This document shows positions 1-11,271 of a DNA stretch of 11,503 nt, in pieces. A model generated the notes under the pieces. The model saw nothing but the letters and a program-made list of their open reading frames with translations. It ran no database searches and was not told the origin of the DNA. The stretch is from contig CAXXSM010000158.1 of NCBI GenBank assembly GCA_963663405.2, forward strand, positions 1 through 11,503, written 5' to 3'. This DNA comes from a bacterium (lineage in GTDB: Bacteria > Hinthialibacterota > Hinthialibacteria > Hinthialibacterales > Hinthialibacteraceae). A program made the translations under genes and the position numbers. The stretch's first letter is position 1. Each line of letters opens with the position of its first letter.

Positions 1-1792
1 CAATCTCTGAAACATGTGCATCCGTTGGCAAATCCGTTGATTCTATGCAATAGACCAAAGGCCCTCTCTTAACAGCTGCTTGATTCCTCAGTTCTTCGAC
101 CAATGGATTTGCTTCGTACAATTTTACAGTCATTGGAAAGGTAATGTCAATCCGGTCACCTTCCGACCATGATTTTTGTATCTTGTAATACGTTCCCGGT
201 TTTATTTTGGAATTAACAGTATGATTATTAATTGATATTACAACATTTTCAGTCCAATGGGGAATACGCGCGAATAGGACAAAATTGGAATCTTCAATCG
301 TTTTTATCTCAATTTCGACTTTGCCTTTCCAGGGATAATCAGTATGCTGAGTCAATACGGCACGCGATCCATTCGGCAATCGCGTATCCAGTTTGTTGGA
401 ACCATATAGATTTATCCATATTCCTTCATCAGAGACACAGTATGCATATTGATTGATTTTAGCGATAGTGCGGACTACATTCGGTGGACAGCAGAACGAA
501 CTGATATACGATTGACGTTTGCCTGACCAGCGCAACTCAAAAGGCGGATTCGTGACAGTCCGTAGTGGATTCGTATAAAAAAACCGCTTCCCATCAATAC
601 TGATCCCTGAAAGTACTCCATTATATAACGCAAGTTCCAACGCGTCCGCATAACGTGCGTCTCCCGTAATTCTCAGCATCCGCCAATTCCACATTCCAAA
701 GCCAATCGTCGCGCACGTTTCGTTATACGCAGTGATATTGGGTAATTGATATGGGCGACCATACGCTTGATGGACAAGTTGTATCGCGCTGTGTTTTTTT
801 GAACCATCAGGAGAAGCGCCATCATAGAGCGCGCCTGTAGAACCGGTGATATACATTTTTCTTATATACACATCATTCCATATAGGATCCAAAGGAGTCC
901 ATAGCGTCGCATCGCCGGTCTCCATATATACATCCGCGGCACCGGCATAGAGATAATTCGCTCGTACCGCATGCCCCACAGCTGTTCGTTGCTCCCGGAA
1001 TGGAATTCGATCCTGATTCTGATCGGTTCCTCTGTCAGTCTTTGAACGTATATCGATTAAACCTTTCGCCAATTCTAAATAATCAGAGTTTTGCGTGACT
1101 CGATATAAATCGATCACTCCCATATAATGCGATGGACATATCGTGATACGCGCCAACTCTTCAGGTTTCTTCTCACAGACTTCACTTATGTAACTTGCCG
1201 CTTTTATCGCTACATCCAGCAAATTGGTTTTACCCGTAGCTTTGTAATGCGCCGATGCGGTTGTCAACAAATGACCAATATTATACGTTTCAAAATGCAG
1301 TTGATTTTGTATTTCGTTATGAGCGCATTTCCCTTTTCGTTCTTCAATAATGACGGGAGTATGGATATATCCATCATCACGTTGCGCTTGCGCAATGACA
1401 TGTATAATCTGGTCCATTATACGATCCAGATCTTGATCTAACGTCATCGCATAAGCGTAAGATGCCGCTTCCAACCACTTATAAAAATCTCCGTCATTAA
1501 ACTTTGGCCCATGATGTTCACCCTCTTGCAGTCCAGCCGCAACCAAAAAATTGGTATACGCGTGACTGATTGTTGGATTTTTAAATAAATCCCATAGATT
1601 GGGGATCATCGTTTGATGACACAATTCAAATCGATCCGCCCAAAATCCACTCGTCCATTGAACATCCTTAATGTTAGTTGAATTCAATTTTGCATAGGGA
1701 CTGATATGAATCCTTTGCGCTGTATCATCCAGACAAAATGTATTCATACAAAATAATATCGAAAACATACAGATGATGAGTATTTTCCACAT
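1..1792 (-). CDS. GH127 (DUF1680) glycoside hydrolase, probable aceric acid hydrolase (BT1003-like); 3' end truncated by the window edge
   Basis: Not in the ORF track; translated by hand from ATG at 1792, open for 597 codons to the window edge. It starts with a signal-peptide-like MWKILIICMFSILFCMNTFC. GH127 motifs: GFWADRF, FNDGDFYKWLEA, ICPSHYMG, GHAVRANYLYAG, KMYITG, HQAYGRPYQLPNITAYNETCA, FFYTNPL, SFCCPPN, TDYPWKG, RGPLVYCIE. Confidence 0.92.
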   Translation of the reverse strand, partial: MWKILIICMFSILFCMNTFCLDDTAQRIHISPYAKLNSTNIKDVQWTSGFWADRFELCHQTMIPNLWDLFKNPTISHAYTNFLVAAGLQEGEHHGPKFNDGDFYKWLEAASYAYAMTLDQDLDRIMDQIIHVIAQAQRDDGYIHTPVIIEERKGKCAHNEIQNQLHFETYNIGHLLTTASAHYKATGKTNLLDVAIKAASYISEVCEKKPEELARITICPSHYMGVIDLYRVTQNSDYLELAKGLIDIRSKTDRGTDQNQDRIPFREQRTAVGHAVRANYLYAGAADVYMETGDATLWTPLDPIWNDVYIRKMYITGSTGALYDGASPDGSKKHSAIQLVHQAYGRPYQLPNITAYNETCATIGFGMWNWRMLRITGDARYADALELALYNGVLSGISIDGKRFFYTNPLRTVTNPPFELRWSGKRQSYISSFCCPPNVVRTIAKINQYAYCVSDEGIWINLYGSNKLDTRLPNGSRAVLTQHTDYPWKGKVEIEIKTIEDSNFVLFARIPHWTENVVISINNHTVNSKIKPGTYYKIQKSWSEGDRIDITFPMTVKLYEANPLVEELRNQAAVKRGPLVYCIESTDLPTDAHVSEI

Positions 1793-1861
1793 ATTCTTAT
1801 TCCAAATGTTATTCAATAATTGATTATTACACCGCATTGCGTGAAATACATTAATTATATT

Positions 1862-3076
1862 TTAATGCAGAGTATTACTATTGTTTTTGGGATCCATATA
1901 ATCAACATATTGATTTGGATTCGTGCCATTCAACCATTCTTCAATATTCGTATATCCATCATTATCTTGATCACCCCTATTATCAGTTGGATCATCCATA
2001 TTCAATCCATATTTTTCTTCCCATTGATCCGGCATGCCGTCATAATCCCGATCATTTGGCGCTGGAATAGATACATACTCCGGCCATCCTCCGACTTCAT
2101 CAGGAGTGTTGATTATACCATTTCCAGAATCTATTTTACCAGCTCTCACCATCTGCATAATACGTTCATCTACAGGATCTCGTTTCGGAAGCGATGGGCC
2201 TGCATGTTTTAGCACGTCTTGATATGCTTCTTCCGCCTGTTGTGTATGTATAGGAGCGCATGGATTTGGATGCGCCGCTCGCACACGCGCAATAATCATT
2301 GCACGCTCATAATCGGTAAGATTCCTATCATAATCGAACTGTAAACCTTCCTGCCAATTGTTCTCTGTGATATCCGGGTATCCATACACGTAATTATCAG
2401 CGACATACCATTTACCCGGTTTATCCGATTCACTGTACATATCTAAATGCTGTGGACGGCAGATTCGGTATTGTATAGCGCCTTCATTAACAGCCGGACC
2501 TGGTTTGAAATAGTTCGCGACAATATTGACGTTTGAACTCGCGTCCGCGCCGTCTATGGTTCGATGTCTCCAATTGTAAAGAACATTATTTCGTATATCA
2601 ACACGCTCTCCCCATCCAATACTTGGATTCCGGCCCGTGTTGCAGGCGAAAAGGTTATGATGAAACGAACCGTTTCTACCTCCCCATGTTCCTCCAAAAG
2701 CGTGATTGTTTAGATTCAGCGCTTCACTGGATATACACCATTGAATGGTGATATTCTCCGCAGGAAGTTTTTTCTGACTTCCATCCGGCATTGTTTTCAT
2801 ATAGCGGTAGAACGATATATTTTCATCCAATCCCCATGATGTGGAACAATGGTCGATGATAATATTGCCAATGGGATAGCCACCCAACGCATCATTTCTG
2901 TCTTTTAAATTCCCACGGCGGAATCGGAGATAGCGAAGAATCACATCATGTGTATTGATTTCCGTTGTCTGCCCTTTGACGCAGACACCATCACCTGGAG
3001 CCGTTTGGGCGGCAATGGTAAGATATGGATTATCAATGCTGAGTTTACTTTCTAATGTGATAACACCGGATACACG
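1862..3076 (-). CDS. PL1 pectate lyase domain (PL1_2-like); C-terminal part of the frameshifted GH127/146-PL1 gene (ORF track gives 1862..2944)
   Basis: The frame is open upstream of the GTG at 2944 and reads RVSGVITLESKLSIDNPYLTIAAQTAPGDGVCVKGQTTEINTHDVILRYLRFRRG. It then has IIIDHCSTSWGLDE, NITIQWCISSE, HHNLFACNTGRNP, NNVLYNW and NYFKPGP, and ends in a DRDYDGMPDQWE...DQDNDGYTNIEEWLN Ca-binding tail. The N-terminal PL1 motif lies at the end of the upstream ORF. Confidence 0.9.
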   Translation of the reverse strand, partial: RVSGVITLESKLSIDNPYLTIAAQTAPGDGVCVKGQTTEINTHDVILRYLRFRRGNLKDRNDALGGYPIGNIIIDHCSTSWGLDENISFYRYMKTMPDGSQKKLPAENITIQWCISSEALNLNNHAFGGTWGGRNGSFHHNLFACNTGRNPSIGWGERVDIRNNVLYNWRHRTIDGADASSNVNIVANYFKPGPAVNEGAIQYRICRPQHLDMYSESDKPGKWYVADNYVYGYPDITENNWQEGLQFDYDRNLTDYERAMIIARVRAAHPNPCAPIHTQQAEEAYQDVLKHAGPSLPKRDPVDERIMQMVRAGKIDSGNGIINTPDEVGGWPEYVSIPAPNDRDYDGMPDQWEEKYGLNMDDPTDNRGDQDNDGYTNIEEWLNGTNPNQYVDYMDPKNNSNTLH

Positions 3077-5202
3077 AATATTACAATTCGAGGTACTTCG
3101 GCTGTTACAGCCGCACGTAAACTGCCAGGTCCACTATCATTCAAGTTTGTCACGAGTATGACAATTCCTCCACGCCCTCCGGCCGTAAAAGCGCCCGCTC
3201 CTTCCGCGCCGGGAAACGCAGGTATTTTCTTCTCTAAATTCGGTTTCTTTGATACACTGTTATTACATCGTTTCAACCAGACAGCATAAGAAAAAGATTT
3301 ATCATTACGTTCAAGTTTTTGTTTTTCGTTTTTATACCATTGTCCAATGTTTGCAAACGGCCATGCGTTTAGTTTCATGATTTGATTATTTTCCAATACA
3401 ACATTTACAGCGTACGCAGGGCCTAATGTATTTTCTTCTATCTTGATTTCTTGCAGTTTGTCTTCCGCAATAAACCAACGTACTTTTGTGGATAAATCTT
3501 TAGGCAGACCTTCCAATTTCATTTGATCGATTGAGTTCCATAATACCGTATCAATGGCATAAACCAATGGGCCACGCATTAAGGCCCATCGATCGTCATT
3601 TTGAACATGTAAGCGTTGTATCCATTGAATCTCCATTGGTAGCAATAATGATATCTGTGATCTACTTTCCCACACACGTTCAATTTTCATATAATGCCCT
3701 GGCTTCAATTTTTTCAATATTTCATCATTCACTTTGACCACAGGTTTCTTACACCAAGCGGGTAAGCGAATATATATCGGAAATTTTTCCGTTTTTTCTG
3801 TTTCTATGGAGATCTCAATTTCTTCTGTTTCTGGATAATTCGTTTTTTGTGATATCAATACGGTTGAACCTGAATCCAGCCGAATGGCAGCCTTGGATTC
3901 AATATACTGATTGATGTAAATACCATCTTTACCAGAGGCATAGATCAATTGAGGAATCTTTGTGGCAATCCGTGGCCCACTCGCCGTGCAGCAATCGGGC
4001 CCATGAAAATACACATCCGGTTTCATTCCATTGAGCGGCGTATGATAGCGAAACACTTCTCCATCCACGGTCTGCGCAGCGAATAGATGATTCCAAATCA
4101 ACCGCTCGATCGCGTCCGCATAGATCGAATCACCCGTTAATTCCAGGAGATAATGACTCAACTCGATCCATGACATCATTGCGCATGTTTCCACTTCACG
4201 GCCATCGATTGGAAGGTTATATCCCGTTTCATAGTGTTCGTCAAAACTGACACCGCCAGTGATATACATCTGCCGGTGCGAAATATCATGCCACGCGCCA
4301 CGCACTTTCAGTAATAGGGAATTATCACCGGTAATTTGATACAATCGTAACAATCCAATCAGATTCATATGCAGTGTATGGGAATGCACGTAACGCTGAA
4401 TCTCATTAATTCCAATTTCTCCCCGCGCAACTTTCGCAAGATTCGAAAACGTATTGTATCCTGACCACCGGTCAATATTATCAACACACCATTGCGCCCA
4501 TTGTAGATATCGATCGTCTCCCGATACTGTATACAGGCGCAGCATAGGATCGATCAACAAGGTTCCCTCCAAACAATAATGCACAGAATGCCCTGCGATC
4601 GTTTCCCCTTTCGGTCCCGGCCAAAATTCGGCTTTTCCCGGTCCAATTGTATCAACAAAATAATCACCAAGCCGTTTAGCCGTTTCAAGCGCTCGATTGT
4701 CTTGCCATACTTCATACGCAGTTAGCAAACCGTGCAGCATAAAATACAACTCGTAAGCGTCCATACCACGCAAAGGCATTTTTTGGGTTCGAACCGCTGG
4801 ATCCGTTACGCCAAGATATCCCCCCGGCTCCTGCGCGTTGATAAGCCGGTTCAATATACTTTTTGTCTTCTCCCGTAACGGATCATCGTTGAATGTTTCC
4901 GCGGCCAAGACCGCTGACTCAAGCCACTTGCCGGGTTGTTCTCCCACCCATTTCCATTCCCGGTGTTTCTTTTGTTCGACAAGTTTTACAAATGCGTCAA
5001 TATCAAAATGATGAAGATATTCATCCTTATTCACTGCAAGCCGTTTTCCAATAAATCCACCAATATTGGACACGGAATTCGGTGTTAAAGCCGTTTCGAT
5101 TCGTTCAATTTTGATTTGTGAAGAATTGGAATCAATAGCAGGATAAAAACAGAAAACAAAGACGATCAGCATCACTCGATATCGCGTACAAAATGTATAC
5201 AT
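3052..5202 (-). CDS. GH127/GH146-type beta-L-arabinofuranosidase-like domain followed in frame by the N-terminus of a PL1 pectate lyase (N-terminal part of the frameshifted fusion gene)
   Basis: SD-like GAGGA 7 nt before the ATG; hydrophobic N-terminus. Motifs WVGEQPGKWLE, MYITGG, DEHY..ETCA (E322, E338, C340), DCCTASG (C404/C405), TNYPE, IRLPAW, RGPLVY and YAVWL. These are followed by IPAFPGAEGAGAFTAGGRGG..VTNLNDSGPGSLRAAV, the typical start of PL1_2-like lyases. The last residues (VYPVLSH) are out of frame. Confidence 0.88.
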   Translation of the reverse strand: MYTFCTRYRVMLIVFVFCFYPAIDSNSSQIKIERIETALTPNSVSNIGGFIGKRLAVNKDEYLHHFDIDAFVKLVEQKKHREWKWVGEQPGKWLESAVLAAETFNDDPLREKTKSILNRLINAQEPGGYLGVTDPAVRTQKMPLRGMDAYELYFMLHGLLTAYEVWQDNRALETAKRLGDYFVDTIGPGKAEFWPGPKGETIAGHSVHYCLEGTLLIDPMLRLYTVSGDDRYLQWAQWCVDNIDRWSGYNTFSNLAKVARGEIGINEIQRYVHSHTLHMNLIGLLRLYQITGDNSLLLKVRGAWHDISHRQMYITGGVSFDEHYETGYNLPIDGREVETCAMMSWIELSHYLLELTGDSIYADAIERLIWNHLFAAQTVDGEVFRYHTPLNGMKPDVYFHGPDCCTASGPRIATKIPQLIYASGKDGIYINQYIESKAAIRLDSGSTVLISQKTNYPETEEIEISIETEKTEKFPIYIRLPAWCKKPVVKVNDEILKKLKPGHYMKIERVWESRSQISLLLPMEIQWIQRLHVQNDDRWALMRGPLVYAIDTVLWNSIDQMKLEGLPKDLSTKVRWFIAEDKLQEIKIEENTLGPAYAVNVVLENNQIMKLNAWPFANIGQWYKNEKQKLERNDKSFSYAVWLKRCNNSVSKKPNLEKKIPAFPGAEGAGAFTAGGRGGIVILVTNLNDSGPGSLRAAVTAEVPRIVIFVYPVLSH

Positions 5203-5238
5203 ATCGCTTCCTCAATCTTCTAATTCCACATATACACA

Positions 5239-6207
5239 TCAATTCTTATTCGTATATTCATTGCCTTGCTTTGGAGGCAACTTCATTCCCTCTCCAAAAT
5301 AATATCCAGTATGAGCGGGTTGATTATAACTTACATTCTGCCAAGCGATACTTAATCGATAAACCGAATCGCTCATCAGCGTTGGGAATCGATAGTTAGT
5401 AGGAATCGTGGTTGTAAAGATACGTAATTCACTTCCATCTCGAGTACGCCATATCACTTCTTCCCGCCAATCCCCCAAAATATCCGCCGCCAGACACGGA
5501 TTTGCCTTTGTTCCATTATTCGTCACACAATTGTACTGCCCTCCATTCAGCAATCGTTCCGTTTCACCCCGTTCATAATTCCATTTATCAATATACGCCC
5601 CGCTTCGCCAGCCTCCATCGAGAATTTCTCTCAAAAGATCACCATCCCACCAGATCCCCATATTACATGAGCGTGGTTTTGCGGATGAGATTTTCTGCCC
5701 TTGACAATTGTATAGTCCATCAGAATCATTCGTCCAGCATTCATACCCGCGGTGACGCGGATCGATATCCATAGCCAAACCTCTTCCAGGATCATTCAAC
5801 TGCAATCCCCAGATCACTGTTCCAGTCAATGCGTCCCGCAAATTGGCGCCATTGGGATGCTTTGGACGTTCGTGAATCCCAAAAATCTCTAATCCCGGCC
5901 GATCGGGATTGATGTCCGATACATGCAAAGCGTCCCCATGGCCCAATTCTGTTGTATAAAGTCCTTTTCCATTGTCATCGATTACACAGGCGCCATAGAT
6001 AATCTCATCCTTTCCATCATCATCAATATCCGCGACGGACACGCTATGATATCCTTGCCCCTGATAGTCCTTGTTTCCAGGGGTTCCATCATCGCTGTCA
6101 AACGTCCATAGATGAGTCAGTTTTCCATCTCGCCAGTTCCAAGCCGCTAACACCGTTCTCGTGTAATATCCACGGCACATGACTAAGCTGGGCCGCTTGC
6201 CATCCAA
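5239..6207 (-). CDS. yesW: PL11 rhamnogalacturonan lyase, C-terminal part of frameshifted gene
   Basis: YesW/YesX-family motifs: LDGKRPSLVMCRGYYTR, GQGYHSVSVADIDDDGKDEIIYG, GHGDALH, DIDPRHRG, IWWDGDLLRE, NNGTKANP, ADILGDWREE, YRLSIAWQNVSYNQP. Confidence 0.92.
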   Translation of the reverse strand: MDGKRPSLVMCRGYYTRTVLAAWNWRDGKLTHLWTFDSDDGTPGNKDYQGQGYHSVSVADIDDDGKDEIIYGACVIDDNGKGLYTTELGHGDALHVSDINPDRPGLEIFGIHERPKHPNGANLRDALTGTVIWGLQLNDPGRGLAMDIDPRHRGYECWTNDSDGLYNCQGQKISSAKPRSCNMGIWWDGDLLREILDGGWRSGAYIDKWNYERGETERLLNGGQYNCVTNNGTKANPCLAADILGDWREEVIWRTRDGSELRIFTTTIPTNYRFPTLMSDSVYRLSIAWQNVSYNQPAHTGYYFGEGMKLPPKQGNEYTNKN

Positions 6208-7135
6208 GTAAGCGGCGCACGCTAAAAAACCGGTCTACTCGATTTCCATAACCATCCCCCCAAACATCTTTAATTTGCTGTGACGTAGGATACAGCGTAT
6301 CCGGATGACGGGGAGGGATATAATTCGTTGTTACCATTGCTTTCCCCGTTAATCCATCAAACACAGTCAAATACTCTGGCCCTGCAAGAATATAGCCATC
6401 TTCATTGCGGTAATCCGCGCTCACGTCGCCAATAATATTGCCAACGCCATCTCTCGTTCCATCGGCGGTCTTGCAGGCGATTTCCGCCTTCCCATCTCCA
6501 TCGAGATCATAGACAATAAACTGGGTATAATGAGCGCCTTCCCTTATATTCTTACCTAAGTTAATTGTCCACAGTAATGTTCCATCCAATTTATAAGCTT
6601 GTAATATCGCTGGCCCTGTTATCCCTTTGTGCGCATTATCTCGCCCGCGTGAGGCTTGATGCAAAACAATTTCATAGGAACCATCACCATCCAGATCCCC
6701 CACCGAAGCGTCATTCGGTGTCGTTCCTTCAGGCGTTTGCAGTGGTATGGATAGATAAGGCCGCGCCGGAGCGTCGGCAACAAAAGTATAAGGCTTACTC
6801 GCATCTTGTTCTTCACCATTGATGATAGGTTTTACAAAATAGGAAAGAGAACGCGACCAATGTACATCCTTATCTTGAAAACACGTTCGATCGAAAATCG
6901 GTTTTTTATTAACTCGAACTGTTTTTCCATCAATCGTACGATAAAGGTTGAATCCAATCTCTTCTTGATCACAACCAAGCATGCGCCAGCTAACAAAGAT
7001 ATTTCCATTGCCTTGATTGACGGCGACAACACCCCGATCGAGAGATTCCATTTGCCGCTGCGCAGATGCATATGAAACTAAAAAAAACGAAATAAATAAA
7101 AGACATAATACTATGCTTTTTTTTGAATGATTCAT
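6098..7135 (-). CDS. yesW: PL11 rhamnogalacturonan lyase, N-terminal part of frameshifted gene (in frame until about 6224)
   Basis: Signal peptide ending ASA|QRQMESLDRGVVAV. Motifs FVSWRMLG, FNLYR, PNDASVGDLDGDGSYEI, INLGKNIREGAHYTQFIVYDLDGDGKAE, KTADGT, GPEYLTVFDG and WGDGYGNRVDRF. SD-like GGAAGGA 5 nt before the ATG. Confidence 0.92.
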   Translation of the reverse strand: MNHSKKSIVLCLLFISFFLVSYASAQRQMESLDRGVVAVNQGNGNIFVSWRMLGCDQEEIGFNLYRTIDGKTVRVNKKPIFDRTCFQDKDVHWSRSLSYFVKPIINGEEQDASKPYTFVADAPARPYLSIPLQTPEGTTPNDASVGDLDGDGSYEIVLHQASRGRDNAHKGITGPAILQAYKLDGTLLWTINLGKNIREGAHYTQFIVYDLDGDGKAEIACKTADGTRDGVGNIIGDVSADYRNEDGYILAGPEYLTVFDGLTGKAMVTTNYIPPRHPDTLYPTSQQIKDVWGDGYGNRVDRFFSVRRLLGWQAAQLSHVPWILHENGVSGLELARWKTDSSMDV

Positions 7136-7187
7136 TAGAATCCTTCCATACGATTGAATTGGATTGCATCTAATGTGACAACAACAA

Positions 7188-9329
7188 TCACGGCATTTTC
7201 ATGAGATTCTCCCAGCGTACATTCCATTTTCCATCCTTCGGAAAACCAGGAGCGTCGATTTTGGGACCGTTATCCCATCCTGCCGCCATCATAGAAACCG
7301 CTGTTAACAAACCTCCATTGGCGGGTAGATACGTGGGAAGATTCTTACGTTGATAGCAATGTCCGTTGGGGAGGTACTGATTTTTGGGCGTGTCCATCAG
7401 CAACGATTGTATAGCGAGTTCTGGTTCACCAACTCGCGCGGCTGTCATGGCCATCATTGGGTAATCCCATCCCCATGTGCTTGGCCAATTCCAATCTTCA
7501 AAGATTTTATGCAAAGTCCTACGCATAATTTGGGGATCAACAAGTTCACTTTCCGGCAACACACCCAATGCGGCCACTAAAGAAGGATGATCCCGCCGCA
7601 GCGCTGGATTTTCGAATGTGTCCAAAGTTGATTCCGTCGTAACATAGACATCCTTGTTTTGAGGTAAAGGCGCTAAGCGGTCAATAATATCCTGCCATTT
7701 GGGTTCCGGCTCCAATCCCAAACGCGTTCTCCATTCCTGCGCGTATTGCAATCCCCAAGCCCAATACGCCAATTCATACGTTGGATTATACGTTTTATCC
7801 GGCGGGTAGCATTCCTGCGCGGGGATCAATGGAGGACCAAGAACATACCGTTCTTTTTCTGGATCGAAATACGCGTAGGAAGCCATAAATTGGGCAGTCT
7901 CAAAAACAATTTCTTGATATCGTTTCAGTAACTCTTCACTTGGATTGGCGCGGTAGCATAACTCGGCGTAATAGATCGGATGCGGCTGCTGCCATATCAA
8001 AAATACGCCGATCCCAGAAGGCCCTTCCCGGCCATCCGGCCCAACCATCTTTGGCCACCGCGCCCCGTTGTATCCTTGCAAAGCAGCCATTTTTTTCGCT
8101 TGTGGAAGAATCTGTTGATACCAAGACAAACTCTTCTCAAGCATCGGCGTCCGGTTCCACAAAGCAAAATGCACGGCATGCCACCAGTGCATTTCCAAGT
8201 GAAACTTGCCATACCAACTATTGTGCGTCAATCCGGATTCCTGTGGCGGAATGGAGGAGGCGCATTGTATGGCGGTCAGATATTGAGAGAGAATGACACG
8301 CCGTTCAAGTTCAACTGCGCGTGGATCACTGCATTGACTAAAATCAACAGCGCCGCCACTCATCCAAAACCTCTTCCAAAACGCAGCGCAATCCGCGCGA
8401 ACCCCCGCAACATCAATTAGAGATTTTGTAATTTCCTCTTTTGAAAATTCACATGTAAATTCAAAGAAGCTTCCTTTTCCCGGCTGAAGCAAAAAAGAAT
8501 GAGCTTCTTTTTGAATCCAATCGCAATGGCCTGAATACTGGATGCGGACATAATACACATCCTCATCAAGCGTCCGTTTCAATACAACCAATCCCATTTC
8601 CTGTTTCAAAATGGTAGTTGTATGCCGGTCAGGTGAATTCCAATCAGCCATGCCCGGCCCCCAATTTTCAGAACCATATGGAAAAGAAAAACAGACGGGC
8701 AGATTCTCCAAGCAATGTTCACCGGTTTCCACACGGACCGCAATCAGATCTCGATTTGGATGACAGACAGTGACAACCTTTACAGGATGCCCATCGATCG
8801 TGAAAGAACTGCGTAATTCTCCTTTCCACAAATCGAGGGTTTGTTGAACCTCTTTCAATTCATCAATTAAAAGTTCAGTCGTATCCGCATGTTGAAGTTG
8901 AAAACCGATCCGGCCCAGATGAAGCCGGTGAGGATTGGCCCGAAGCCAACGTCCGGCCGGTAAGTTCGTCCGAGCAGCATAGGGAACCTTCCGCCCATAG
9001 GTGTCATAATACGCGAAGGTTTCATCTAACTTGTAAGGTGTTTTAGATGGAATTGTATGCCACCCCCATGAGGACAACGTTCCCAAAGGAATCCCGTCCT
9101 GATAAAAACCGGGGAATGTCTGCAAACCAGTCACATCAGCGGTAAACGCGAATTCCCCATTGCCAACCGAGAAAGGAGCCAATGGATCCGCTTTTTCAAT
9201 ACATGGATTATGACGATTGACCAAGGCGAAACGATCGATCGAACCGGTCCCATCCGCCACACAATAATTTGTTAAAAAAAAAACCGCCGGCAATAAAAAT
9301 GCGGATAGAATTTTAATTTTGTTAACCAT
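7188..9329 (-). CDS. Secreted six-hairpin (alpha/alpha)6 glycosidase of unknown specificity, GH95/GH65-like
   Basis: Intact 713-aa ORF with a signal-peptide-like N-terminus. Motifs IDRFALVNRHNP, VGNGEFAFTADVTGLQT, NPHRLHLG, FWMSGGAVD, ELERRVILSQY, PPQESGL..WYGKFHLEM, GARWPKM, IPAQE, DHPS, WGWDY and YLPANGGLL, in an order paralleling the GH95 catalytic barrel. Family assignment is by recall only. Confidence 0.75.
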   Translation of the reverse strand: MVNKIKILSAFLLPAVFFLTNYCVADGTGSIDRFALVNRHNPCIEKADPLAPFSVGNGEFAFTADVTGLQTFPGFYQDGIPLGTLSSWGWHTIPSKTPYKLDETFAYYDTYGRKVPYAARTNLPAGRWLRANPHRLHLGRIGFQLQHADTTELLIDELKEVQQTLDLWKGELRSSFTIDGHPVKVVTVCHPNRDLIAVRVETGEHCLENLPVCFSFPYGSENWGPGMADWNSPDRHTTTILKQEMGLVVLKRTLDEDVYYVRIQYSGHCDWIQKEAHSFLLQPGKGSFFEFTCEFSKEEITKSLIDVAGVRADCAAFWKRFWMSGGAVDFSQCSDPRAVELERRVILSQYLTAIQCASSIPPQESGLTHNSWYGKFHLEMHWWHAVHFALWNRTPMLEKSLSWYQQILPQAKKMAALQGYNGARWPKMVGPDGREGPSGIGVFLIWQQPHPIYYAELCYRANPSEELLKRYQEIVFETAQFMASYAYFDPEKERYVLGPPLIPAQECYPPDKTYNPTYELAYWAWGLQYAQEWRTRLGLEPEPKWQDIIDRLAPLPQNKDVYVTTESTLDTFENPALRRDHPSLVAALGVLPESELVDPQIMRRTLHKIFEDWNWPSTWGWDYPMMAMTAARVGEPELAIQSLLMDTPKNQYLPNGHCYQRKNLPTYLPANGGLLTAVSMMAAGWDNGPKIDAPGFPKDGKWNVRWENLMKMP

Positions 9330-9331
9330 TA
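9327..9331 (-). other. Overlapping stop/start (TAATG), suggesting translational coupling of GH51 and the GH95/65-like gene
   Basis: TAA at 9331-9329 shares base 9329 with ATG at 9329-9327. Confidence 0.8.
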
Positions 9332-10396
9332 TTTCACACCAAATTTGAATATAGAAACACTAATCGGTGAAACGATCAGGCGCCCATCATTCCACATCAC
9401 CGGGACTTCTTCAATCGTCACATCCGGCGCTTCCCCAGGTGTGTTATGAGCCATTTTATCTGAACCGGTGATCTGCCAGCGTTGCCCAACACTATTCACT
9501 TTCACACCCTTTAATTCAACCGGCAGTGAAACCGGCTCATCCGTTGGATTCACAATGGATATCGTGATCGCGTTCTGATCCGATGTCCATGCGGCGGCAA
9601 CGTATAATGGCTCAGGCGCGTCCGTGACACGGACAGGAATTTCTCCATAATGACGCCGGTACAATTTCAATGCCAGTCCCGTTGTTTCAAACTGCGCTTC
9701 TGTTTTATTGGTTTTAATCGCGCCAATGACATTCACCGTCTGCGCATAATTCGCCATGAAAAAGAGATCGCTGTTCTTGAAATATTCATGAAGACCGGCG
9801 GCGATTCCCAACGCGTCCTGCAGATGATACTGACAACCGAGTTCGCCATAGATATAGCGGCCATACCAATAATTCCATTCATCCATCGCGATGCGAATAT
9901 CCTTTGCTTCCAATCCTTCAATCGATTCACGGTATTGACGATGCGCATCCGCGACACGCCGGATGGCATTAGGTATCAGCGCCACATGTTCAATCAGATT
10001 GGTTTTGCTCTTTTGATAAATATGTTCGCTGATTAAATCCATATGATCCGAACAGACATTCATCATCGTTTGACTCCAGTCGCCAACAGCGCCGACGGCG
10101 ATCAACTGGATGGATGGATCAATGTGGTACATCAATTCCGCACATTGATTATGCTTTTTCACATAATCTTCCAACGGCATATGTCCCTTTTGCCAATCGC
10201 CATACATCTCATTCCCAACCGCCCACCAACGAACGTTAAACGGTTCGGGATGTCCATTTTTAGCGCGTAATTTTCCCATGGGCGTATCAACACTGCCATT
10301 GCAATATTCCACTTCTTCCGCCGCGAGTTCAACGGAACCGAGTCCCGTGTTCACAGCGATAAAAGGTTCTGCGTCAATCAATTCACATAGATCCAT
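9329..10396 (-). CDS. GH51 alpha-L-arabinofuranosidase, C-terminal part of frameshifted gene (frame open from about 10452)
   Basis: Catalytic motifs WWAVGNEMYG (acid/base Glu, 10208-10210) and IAMDEWNYW (nucleophile Glu, 9878-9880), MANYAQTVNVIG, and a C-terminal beta-sandwich region. The frame extends upstream as KNPAWTGIEHNDVGIHEFMDLC. Confidence 0.92.
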   Translation of the reverse strand: MDLCELIDAEPFIAVNTGLGSVELAAEEVEYCNGSVDTPMGKLRAKNGHPEPFNVRWWAVGNEMYGDWQKGHMPLEDYVKKHNQCAELMYHIDPSIQLIAVGAVGDWSQTMMNVCSDHMDLISEHIYQKSKTNLIEHVALIPNAIRRVADAHRQYRESIEGLEAKDIRIAMDEWNYWYGRYIYGELGCQYHLQDALGIAAGLHEYFKNSDLFFMANYAQTVNVIGAIKTNKTEAQFETTGLALKLYRRHYGEIPVRVTDAPEPLYVAAAWTSDQNAITISIVNPTDEPVSLPVELKGVKVNSVGQRWQITGSDKMAHNTPGEAPDVTIEEVPVMWNDGRLIVSPISVSIFKFGVK

Positions 10397-11271
10397 AAAT
10401 TCATGAATTCCGACATCATTATGTTCAATACCCGTCCAGGCGGGATTCTTGCGGGGGGACGTTTATCGCGGTCGCCGACGCCGTCTTTCCAATTGTAATC
10501 ACTGACAAAATTCCCACCCGGCCAGCGATAAACAGGCGCATCCAGTTCTTTTAAAAGCTGCAGAGTATCAGGCCGGAAACCTTTCACATTGTCCACTGGC
10601 ATCAACGAAACCGTTCCAACTCGAAAAGCGCCTTTTCCATGCCCCACAATACGCAGACGGCCTTTCAATGTATCCCTTTTGGATGTCATGCGGAATGAAT
10701 ATTTCTTGTATTCATTTGTAAGTTTGTCAATTGTATAGACGACACATTCATCCTCTCCGTCTCCACAAACTAAACTGACTTTGATTGGAACCGCGTCAGA
10801 ATCACCCGCGGCGATAATATACCCCACATATTCTTTGCCAGCCAAGAACGCCAATTCCCCCTGTTCAATCCCGGCCGGCGCATCACTAATCTTAATTTCC
10901 GGCGTATGTTCACCGGTAAAAGATCCTTCTTTCACCATACGGACTGTCCCCTCACCACCAATCACTTTCCAGGGCGAACCTGTTAAAACGGGAAAATCAC
11001 CGCCCCTCCAAAAACCTCTATCCGTCTCGGTTGACCAAGGTTTATATTCATCCGTAACGGGAAAAAAGAACTTTCGGTCTTCCAGCATCTCCGCCCAAAT
11101 CCCGCCATAAATACAACGGCCCAAATGCTCGATAAACTGACCGTAGATATACTTTGAGATCGGTTCCCCGGTTTTCGTGGTATGAATCGTCACCTTGTTT
11201 CCCCCCCACACAAAACACGGAATCAGCAGCAAACAAAAAACCAATGTCATTTTTCGAAGATTCATTTTCAT
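10378..11271 (-). CDS. GH51 alpha-L-arabinofuranosidase, N-terminal part of frameshifted gene
   Basis: Signal peptide, then ISKYIYGQFIEHLGRCIYGGIWAEML, an inserted beta-rich segment, and GFRPD..RWPGGNFVSDYNWKDGVGDRDKRP. The true start may be the ATG at 11265, since SD AGGGAG is 9 nt upstream of it but only 3 nt upstream of 11271. Confidence 0.92.
   Translation of the reverse strand: MKMNLRKMTLVFCLLLIPCFVWGGNKVTIHTTKTGEPISKYIYGQFIEHLGRCIYGGIWAEMLEDRKFFFPVTDEYKPWSTETDRGFWRGGDFPVLTGSPWKVIGGEGTVRMVKEGSFTGEHTPEIKISDAPAGIEQGELAFLAGKEYVGYIIAAGDSDAVPIKVSLVCGDGEDECVVYTIDKLTNEYKKYSFRMTSKRDTLKGRLRIVGHGKGAFRVGTVSLMPVDNVKGFRPDTLQLLKELDAPVYRWPGGNFVSDYNWKDGVGDRDKRPPARIPPGRVLNIMMSEFMNLWIYVN

Follow-up and report, generated by a model that had tools for sequence, protein, structure and literature searches.

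The first structure of an enzyme of subfamily 2 of polysaccharide lyase family 1 (PL1_2) was that of PfPL1 from Pseudoalteromonas fuliginea, in which Arg220 is named as the base removing the proton at C5 and Arg235 is given as the second arginine, neutralizing the C6 carboxylate; the mechanism was argued to be metal-independent, with metal assisting binding (PMC11229556). Other characterized PL1_2 enzymes are BT_4115, BT_4116, and BT_4119 from Bacteroides thetaiotaomicron and PelZ from Dickeya dadantii (PMC11229556). Solved enzymes of glycoside hydrolase family 127 (GH127) include the beta-L-arabinofuranosidases Ara127N, BT3674, and HypBA1 and the aceric acid hydrolase BT_1003. Here we describe a gene that joins modules of these two kinds, located at 1862..5202 on the minus strand of an 11,503-nucleotide stretch of DNA (contig CAXXSM010000158.1 of assembly GCA_963663405.2, hereafter the window), all of whose genes lie on the minus strand. 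The gene probably encodes one secreted pectin-degrading enzyme of about 1113 residues with two catalytic domains, derived from the fusion of an adjacent gene pair and interrupted in the deposited sequence by what is most likely an assembly indel.

The coding sequence runs from one module into the other in a single reading frame. Its translation opens with a basic and then hydrophobic stretch, a probable Sec signal peptide of about residues 1-24 (5131..5202), and proceeds through the GH127 catalytic (alpha/alpha)6 domain (residues 57-417, 3952..5034; PF07944), which holds E322, E338-x-C340, and C404-C405, and the middle beta-sandwich domain (residues 427-523, 3634..3924; PF20736). The C-terminal part of the module (residues 524-643, 3274..3633), aligned both in fusions and in stand-alone relatives, closes with YAVWL (residues 639-643, with W642). 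A 16-residue Lys/Asn/Ser linker, KRCNNSVSKKPNLEKK (residues 644-659, 3226..3273), variable in length and sequence among the fusions, leads to IPAFPGAEG, the N-terminal motif of the lyase (3199..3225), which was checked on the translation. No stop codon lies between the glycosidase part and this motif in the window, and the same frame covers the first 50 residues of the lyase domain (IPAFPGAEG...PRIVIF, 3076..3225), as placed by translation and by alignment of an ortholog to PfPL1.

Past PRIVIF the glycosidase frame holds seven unrelated codons and then a stop, which gives an open reading frame at 3052..5202 of 716 residues (P0001). A second frame (P0002), shifted by -1, opens with RVSGVITLES at base 3076 and runs for 404 codons before it reaches the stop at 1862-1864. 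It supplies the rest of the lyase domain (1862..3076), a beta-helix and a C-terminal helical region recognized by the match to the PfPL1 structure 9buj and by identity to the homolog P0003, and it carries IIIDH (2849..2863, read from the translation), the GRNP motif (2624..2635) and, at the C-terminus, Asp-rich calcium-binding repeats resembling thrombospondin type 3 (1907..2038; PF18884 TSP3_bac, below threshold). Window base 3076 serves both to end the Phe709 codon and to begin the Arg codon that follows, therefore exactly one base is missing, and the repaired protein has 709+404 = 1113 residues. The DNA of two relatives reads TTC CGG and TTC CGT where the window reads TTCGT, as would be expected if one of two adjacent C's had been lost. 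An earlier note made from this DNA had proposed that adding one base would join the glycosidase to the rest of the lyase, that automated annotation would call two genes, and had set out the coordinates, motifs, W642, the 16-residue linker, and the active-site residues; on re-checking, all of these stand, with the break at 3076, and the protein database does hold the two pieces of the window contig as separate proteins (P0001, 716 residues; P0232, 360 residues).

The junction recurs well beyond this contig. Ten homologs (P0003-P0012) of 1088-1124 residues, 58-71% identical, were found among the 120 proteins listed in the search with P0001, of which they cover 95-99%, linker and lyase start included, and they align with the whole window gene end to end. 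All ten share YAVWL, a linker of about 5-16 residues, then IPAFPGAEGAGA, and then a complete lyase domain, and the intact fusions come from independent sources (NCBI, JGI, ENA, and Logan). In a genome of the same family (G012, C24:192-3464) the fusion is an open frame of 1140 residues with zero stops, followed by a canonical GH127 gene in the same order as in the window. Two longer forms carry extra domains (P0127, 1266 residues; P0130, 1346 residues). Judged from these proteins, the fusion is real, shared with a few uncultured bacteria, and no chimera, because ten intact homologs carry the same junction.

This evidence bears directly on an alternative in which two genes are simply juxtaposed, or were joined in assembly as a chimera, and the in-frame linker is an artifact. 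Twelve other database proteins, of independent origin, have this junction, the window linker is similar to those of P0003-P0006, its nearest clade, and no stop, start, or signal peptide separates the modules, whereas in the split form a tail of about 25 residues, a spacer of 51 nucleotides, and a leader of 48 residues lie between them. Although separate adjacent genes do occur in close relatives (L015 and L016), and although the junction at 3226-3273 lies outside the coverage of read-derived contigs, we consider this explanation very improbable. The earlier note had reasoned that the linker leaves no room for a separate start and signal peptide and that the in-frame junction looked real, and both arguments are borne out; the search that it proposed for single proteins that combine DUF1680 (PF07944) with PL1 returns P0003-P0012 and the G012 gene. 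The possibility it raised, that relatives always encode two genes, does not describe what was found, although an adjacent split form exists alongside the intact fusions.

That split form is informative about origin. In a metagenome-assembled genome (MAG) labelled Pirellulales (L015), a 681-residue GH127 gene of the same clade (5869..7914) ends 25 residues past YAVWL, and a separate PL1 gene of 501 residues lies 51 nucleotides after it, with 48 residues, signal peptide included, preceding IPAFPGAEG. In L016, a Sedimentisphaerales MAG, the lyase gene is more distantly related and is found immediately upstream of the GH127 gene. Across 52 species-representative loci with relatives of the glycosidase module, a flanking PL module was seen only in L013, where it is fused, and in L015 and L016, where it is adjacent; these are three of the four top glycosidase scores, the fourth (L014) being cut by a contig end, and the flanks of the other 48 of the 52 hold no PL module.

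In the glycosidase tree the 12 fused modules and the window fall into one clade with 100% Shimodaira-Hasegawa-like support, inside which there are also eight unfused proteins. Sub-groups common to this tree and to that of the lyase are the window with P0003-P0006, the group P0007/P0009-P0012/P0130, P0008, and P0127. The starred branches (FastTree) require at least two changes of fusion label in the lyase tree and at least three in the glycosidase tree, the backbones of both trees being weak. This pattern fits what would be expected of a co-inherited gene pair that was fused or split more than once. The fusion would then have arisen from a conserved adjacent GH127-PL1 pair that lost its intergenic region and the signal peptide of the lyase.

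The GH127-PL1 pairing is rare. PF07944 is present in 12 of the 120 longer PL-module proteins listed, the architecture occurs in two of 35 genomes of the class, the window genome (G000) included, and when a profile of the ten fusions was run against 1.84 billion representatives clustered at 50% identity, P0011 was the only full-length match among the best 150. A literature search, with subscription journals and CAZy outside its scope, found no paper describing the pairing, which is an uncharacterized combination of two known families, present in databases as unnamed or "DUF1680" proteins. The novelty claimed in the earlier note survives as far as rarity and the literature search go, but the pairing turns out to be one among many fusions of the lyase module.

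As to taxonomy, the nearest named homologs of the fusion are labelled Pirellulales or "uncultured bacterium". The rpoB copy of the window genome (L066, C70:90489-94205) has its nearest relative in the species-representative collection, at 82%, in a MAG named "Candidatus Omnitrophota bacterium" (L067). Horizontal spread or inconsistent labels are possible reasons for the mismatch.

The glycosidase module is recognized by PF07944 in P0001 with 169.1 bits against a cut-off of 24.9, found at the same place in the genome search, and by PF20736 with 78.6 bits against a cut-off of 24.2. The PF20737 C-terminal domain gave no match in P0001 or P0003, even though the middle domain is followed by about 120 residues, in which the structure model of P0003 places beta strands at lower confidence. 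E322, E338, C340, C404, and C405 are present in the window and invariant across the ten fusions, and the motifs fdEhy, EvETCa, and pdCCta align with those of 4qjy; the title of PDB entry 7exu names an E322Q mutant. We take the residue roles to be those of HypBA1, with a Glu acid/base and a Glu-x-Cys...Cys-Cys zinc site that provides the Cys nucleophile. Sequence matches to solved structures are strongest for Ara127N (4qjy, E 9.2e-45) and BT3674 (6ex6, E 3.2e-36), and weaker for BT_1003 and HypBA1 (about 1e-24) and for the GH146 enzyme BT0349 (E 2.5e-20). By these matches the module is nearer GH127 than GH146, so that of the label GH127/146 given by the earlier note the GH127-type fold and motifs are retained and the equal standing of GH146 is not.

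For the lyase, P0002 matches 9buj, the sole solved relative, with E 1.1e-33, and a stand-alone ortholog does so with E 5.5e-50 over residues 50-459. The ortholog aligns from the first modelled residues of PfPL1 (AFKNADGYG against AFPGAEGAG), and IPAFPGAEG is therefore the start of the lyase domain, just where the earlier note had recognized a PL1 N-terminal motif. P0002 is 73% identical to P0003, and the part before the break 71%. The arginine of GRNP, which is R858 in P0003, aligns to PfPL1 R220 and does not vary among the fusions, and the Asp/Glu positions in DALGG, IIIDH, and WGLDEN, like GRNP itself, are invariant or nearly so in fusions and stand-alone forms. The best NCBIfam match is PelZ (E 3.8e-37). 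The TSP3_bac match (E 6.6e-5) reaches 23.1 bits, below its cut-off of 25, in a region that aligns to the C-terminal calcium-binding region of PfPL1. The earlier view that both active sites appear intact is accordingly upheld for the named motifs, but a counterpart of PfPL1 Arg235 has not been placed, and activity is predicted from these motifs.

The structure prediction proposed by the earlier note was carried out with AlphaFold2 on the homolog P0003, 71-73% identical to the window protein and standing in for it, with an alignment of 110 rows. The model (mean predicted local distance difference test score, pLDDT, 83.7; predicted template modelling score, pTM, 0.69) runs from a helical barrel and beta-sandwiches through a low-confidence stretch at 642-675, the linker, with pLDDT below 50, to a beta-helix with a helical tail. 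Foldseek places GH127 structures first (E 2.5e-37; template modelling score, TM-score, to target 0.71-0.75 for 4qjy and 6ex6), and the best lyase is 9buj (TM-score to target 0.77, E 2.5e-22), followed by VexL and Jun a 1. The model recovers a GH127 fold and a beta-helix like that of 9buj.

The nature of the one-base gap must be judged against the rest of the assembly. In the window, the gene for a PL11 rhamnogalacturonan lyase (5239-7135, minus strand) is split into two overlapping open reading frames at an A6 run (6224-6229), and that for a GH51-like alpha-L-arabinofuranosidase (9329-11271, minus strand) is split at a G6 run (10453-10458), with Alpha-L-AF_C in its 3' part and an ArfA-like match in its 5' part. 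Elsewhere in the genome about 12 of 54 sulfatase loci, by a count from the table, are split into adjacent frames or contain stops (for example C67 11244, C42 33626, C122 59942, and C131 40643), and breaks also interrupt uvrA, at a G6 run, and a LeuRS-like gene (these two breaks lie at C150 89616-89644 and C109 ~3600-3770). Logan contigs from run X2, with a word depth of about 2, are identical to the window over 3310-7913, yet they end at 6228 and restart at 6225, each with five of the six A's of the A6 run. Such a pattern is what a bubble in a de Bruijn graph gives when homopolymer length varies, and it suggests a run whose length varies in the reads. Run X1, a small share, yields only 151-base pieces elsewhere. 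After the break in the fusion there is no second lesion in 404 codons, and conservation is as high as before it. We judge it likely that the gap at 3076 is an assembly indel error, and because that is its most likely cause the organism probably makes the full-length protein.

A fusion of this kind from another assembly is also in pieces, P0020 (523 residues) and P0335 (358 residues), one of which ends ...PRIVVFRIS, three codons downstream of the point at which the window breaks. Such a second copy, together with the fact that the frame would be regained by slippage of -1 after the TTC codon, could be read as programmed -1 ribosomal frameshifting or another form of recoding that yields the full-length fusion part of the time. 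There is, however, no slippery heptamer of the form X XXY YYZ at the site, eleven relatives read straight through with TTC CGN, and the genome has many unrelated one-base breaks; of all the explanations considered we find this one the hardest to credit.

A number of observations weigh against a single working enzyme whose gene was broken in assembly. Read-derived contigs leave 3050-3300 uncovered, which puts both the frameshift and the junction of this copy outside the raw data. The break is at a CC pair and no long homopolymer, and rpoB, rpoC, ileS, and two other genes of aminoacyl-tRNA synthetase type are intact, from which it follows that the error rate is not uniform; searches for the dnaE and carB families were uninformative, giving, for one, a fragment of the N-terminal 133 profile positions only and, for the other, no true copy. 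On the side of exact specificity, P0003 scores 156.6 bits against the NCBIfam aceric acid hydrolase equivalog NF049879 (cut-off 950), and the lyase scores 128.1 bits against the PelZ equivalog (cut-off 840). The Pfam model PF00544 (Pectate_lyase_4) scores 16 bits, short of its cut-off of 24 (E 0.0092), and it is also lacking from the precomputed Pfam lists of close stand-alone homologs. By hand count in the PfPL1 alignment, chain position 235 is not Arg, which leaves the Arg235 of the paper unplaced, and PfPL1 R223 and R228 face Ser or a gap, with no Arg counterpart in the window. Finally, the pTM of 0.69 and the disordered linker do not point to any fixed interface of the two domains.

The first group of these points is what an account of the gene as a true pseudogene would draw on. 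Here the lineage would possess a real fusion that was recently inactivated by a one-base deletion, perhaps together with PL11 and GH51 as the pectin locus decays. The deletion is present in the deposited sequence, three of the six genes in the 11.5-kb contig are frame-broken, the Logan contig over 3310-6228 is identical to the window, and several long housekeeping genes are intact. Yet a living cell could hardly tolerate real breaks in uvrA and the LeuRS-like gene, and the same kind of damage extends to the sulfatase loci. The X2 contigs break inside the A6 run of PL11, and X2 may be the source sample, so that its agreement with the window is not independent. The part after the break, free of further lesions, is also equally close in identity to the intact relatives. 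We regard a pseudogene as unlikely, and continue to favor an intact gene with an assembly indel.

The second group bears on whether the lyase-like module is catalytic at all, or instead binds galacturonan or acts as an anchor and so directs the glycosidase to pectin. In the manner of a carbohydrate-binding module it is attached to a wide range of unrelated catalytic partners, the second PL1 arginine is unplaced in the alignment, and the Pfam PL1 model stays below threshold. The residue aligned with the catalytic base, the acidic positions of DALGG, IIIDH, and WGLDEN, and GRNP are nevertheless invariant or nearly so, and stand-alone proteins 60-70% identical to the module are abundant and have their own signal peptides, as expected of working enzymes. 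A purely binding role appears improbable, and a catalytic lyase is the reading that we retain.

On that reading, the N-terminal module would be a GH127-type exo-glycosidase with a cysteine nucleophile and a zinc site, most likely a debranching enzyme resembling beta-L-arabinofuranosidases, and would remove a terminal decoration of furanosyl type by means of the Cys nucleophile at the zinc site. The PL1_2 module, a parallel beta-helix on a flexible tether, would cut the galacturonan backbone by Arg-mediated beta-elimination, and the tether would hold both activities on the same polymer. The activity of each module, the substrate, any synergy of the two, and the signal peptide are all inferred.

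Directly downstream of the fusion, and running off the contig end, is a second and canonical GH127 gene (2-1837, minus strand), with 368 bits for PF07944 and with the middle and C-terminal domains, PF20737 included; its counterpart in G012 lies at L013 4414-6513. A 713-residue open reading frame (7188-9329, minus strand) matches no Pfam family at E <= 0.001, its only hit being a weak one to the GH65 central domain (E 0.003). Together with PL11 and GH51, these neighbors mark a pectin/arabinan locus. In G012, a gene resembling the Sde182 nucleoside hydrolase lies two genes downstream of the fusion (L013 6566-7873). A scan of 1700-5500 for promoters and terminators was at chance level, with 14 sites against 11.7 expected.

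As a secreted protein standing alone, of about 490-520 residues and at 60-70% identity, the lyase module is itself very common, and it is also promiscuous in its fusion partners. Among the 120 longer proteins listed, it is joined to GH127 in 12, to a GH65-like/MGH1-like domain in five (P0124-P0126, P0133, P0135), to a GH78 rhamnosidase in four (examples being P0122, P0128, and P0129), and to an Sde182 nucleoside-hydrolase-like domain in three (P0123, P0141, P0212); DUF3826, which is frequent, an SGNH esterase, a CE8 pectinesterase, SUMF1, and BNR are further partners. The GH127 pairing is one case of this broader fusion habit. A more speculative generalization, which we put forward tentatively, is that the module acts as a recurrent hub in uncultured bacteria resembling Planctomycetota and Verrucomicrobiota, joined to or encoded beside sugar-stripping enzymes (GH127-like, GH78, GH65-like, and Sde182 nucleoside-hydrolase-like) to form tethered "debranch-then-cleave" pectinases. 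The lyase might then cut a decorated backbone, such as galacturonan that resembles rhamnogalacturonan II or is arabinosylated or apiosylated, only after its partner has removed the blocking residue, a specificity outside the homogalacturonan activity known for PL1_2.

If the full-length protein is produced and each half is active, a cysteine glycosidase that strips side chains would be tied physically to a lyase that cuts the backbone. Such an enzyme would represent a natural design against decorated pectins and a candidate for the processing of biomass or pectic oligosaccharides. The series of fused, adjacent, and split forms provides a Rosetta-stone link that assigns an uncharacterized GH127 sub-clade to pectin degradation. 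For an assembly with many one-base indels, gene calls need care, as is clear from the two "proteins" recorded for this one gene.

Set beside the described enzymes, the glycosidase module shares the three-domain fold of Ara127N (4qjy), BT3674 (6ex6), HypBA1 (3wkw), and BT_1003 (5mqo), with TM-scores to target of 0.68-0.75, and like GH127 beta-L-arabinofuranosidases it keeps PF07944 and PF20736, the Glu acid/base, and the Glu-x-Cys...Cys-Cys motif. In contrast to these similarities, modules of the window type are only 19-24% identical to the solved GH127 enzymes and fall into a separate clade, in which the closest members stand beside or are fused to a PL1 gene, and the fusion module lacks the PF20737 match of the canonical GH127 next to it. 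With BT0349 (5opj), a GH146 beta-L-arabinofuranosidase acting on pectic arabinan, it shares the clan-level fold and the Cys/Zn chemistry (TM-score to target 0.61), but the sequence match is weaker than that to GH127 (E 2.5e-20 vs 9.2e-45).

The lyase module matches PfPL1 from the AFxxAxGxGxxTxGGRxG start through the beta-helix to the helical C-terminal adornment and the Asp-rich calcium site. It differs in its identity of about 27%, in lacking a 10-residue insertion after the RxP motif, and in having Ser at the R223 position. In the fusions with GH78, GH65-like, and Sde182-like domains, this PL1_2-like module recurs at 68-70% identity and is again coupled to another domain related to pectin. 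The order of modules differs: the lyase of the GH78 and GH65-like fusions sits at the N-terminus, immediately behind the signal peptide, and that of the GH127 fusions at the C-terminus. PfPL1 stands alone, whereas the lyase of the window is joined to a glycosidase.

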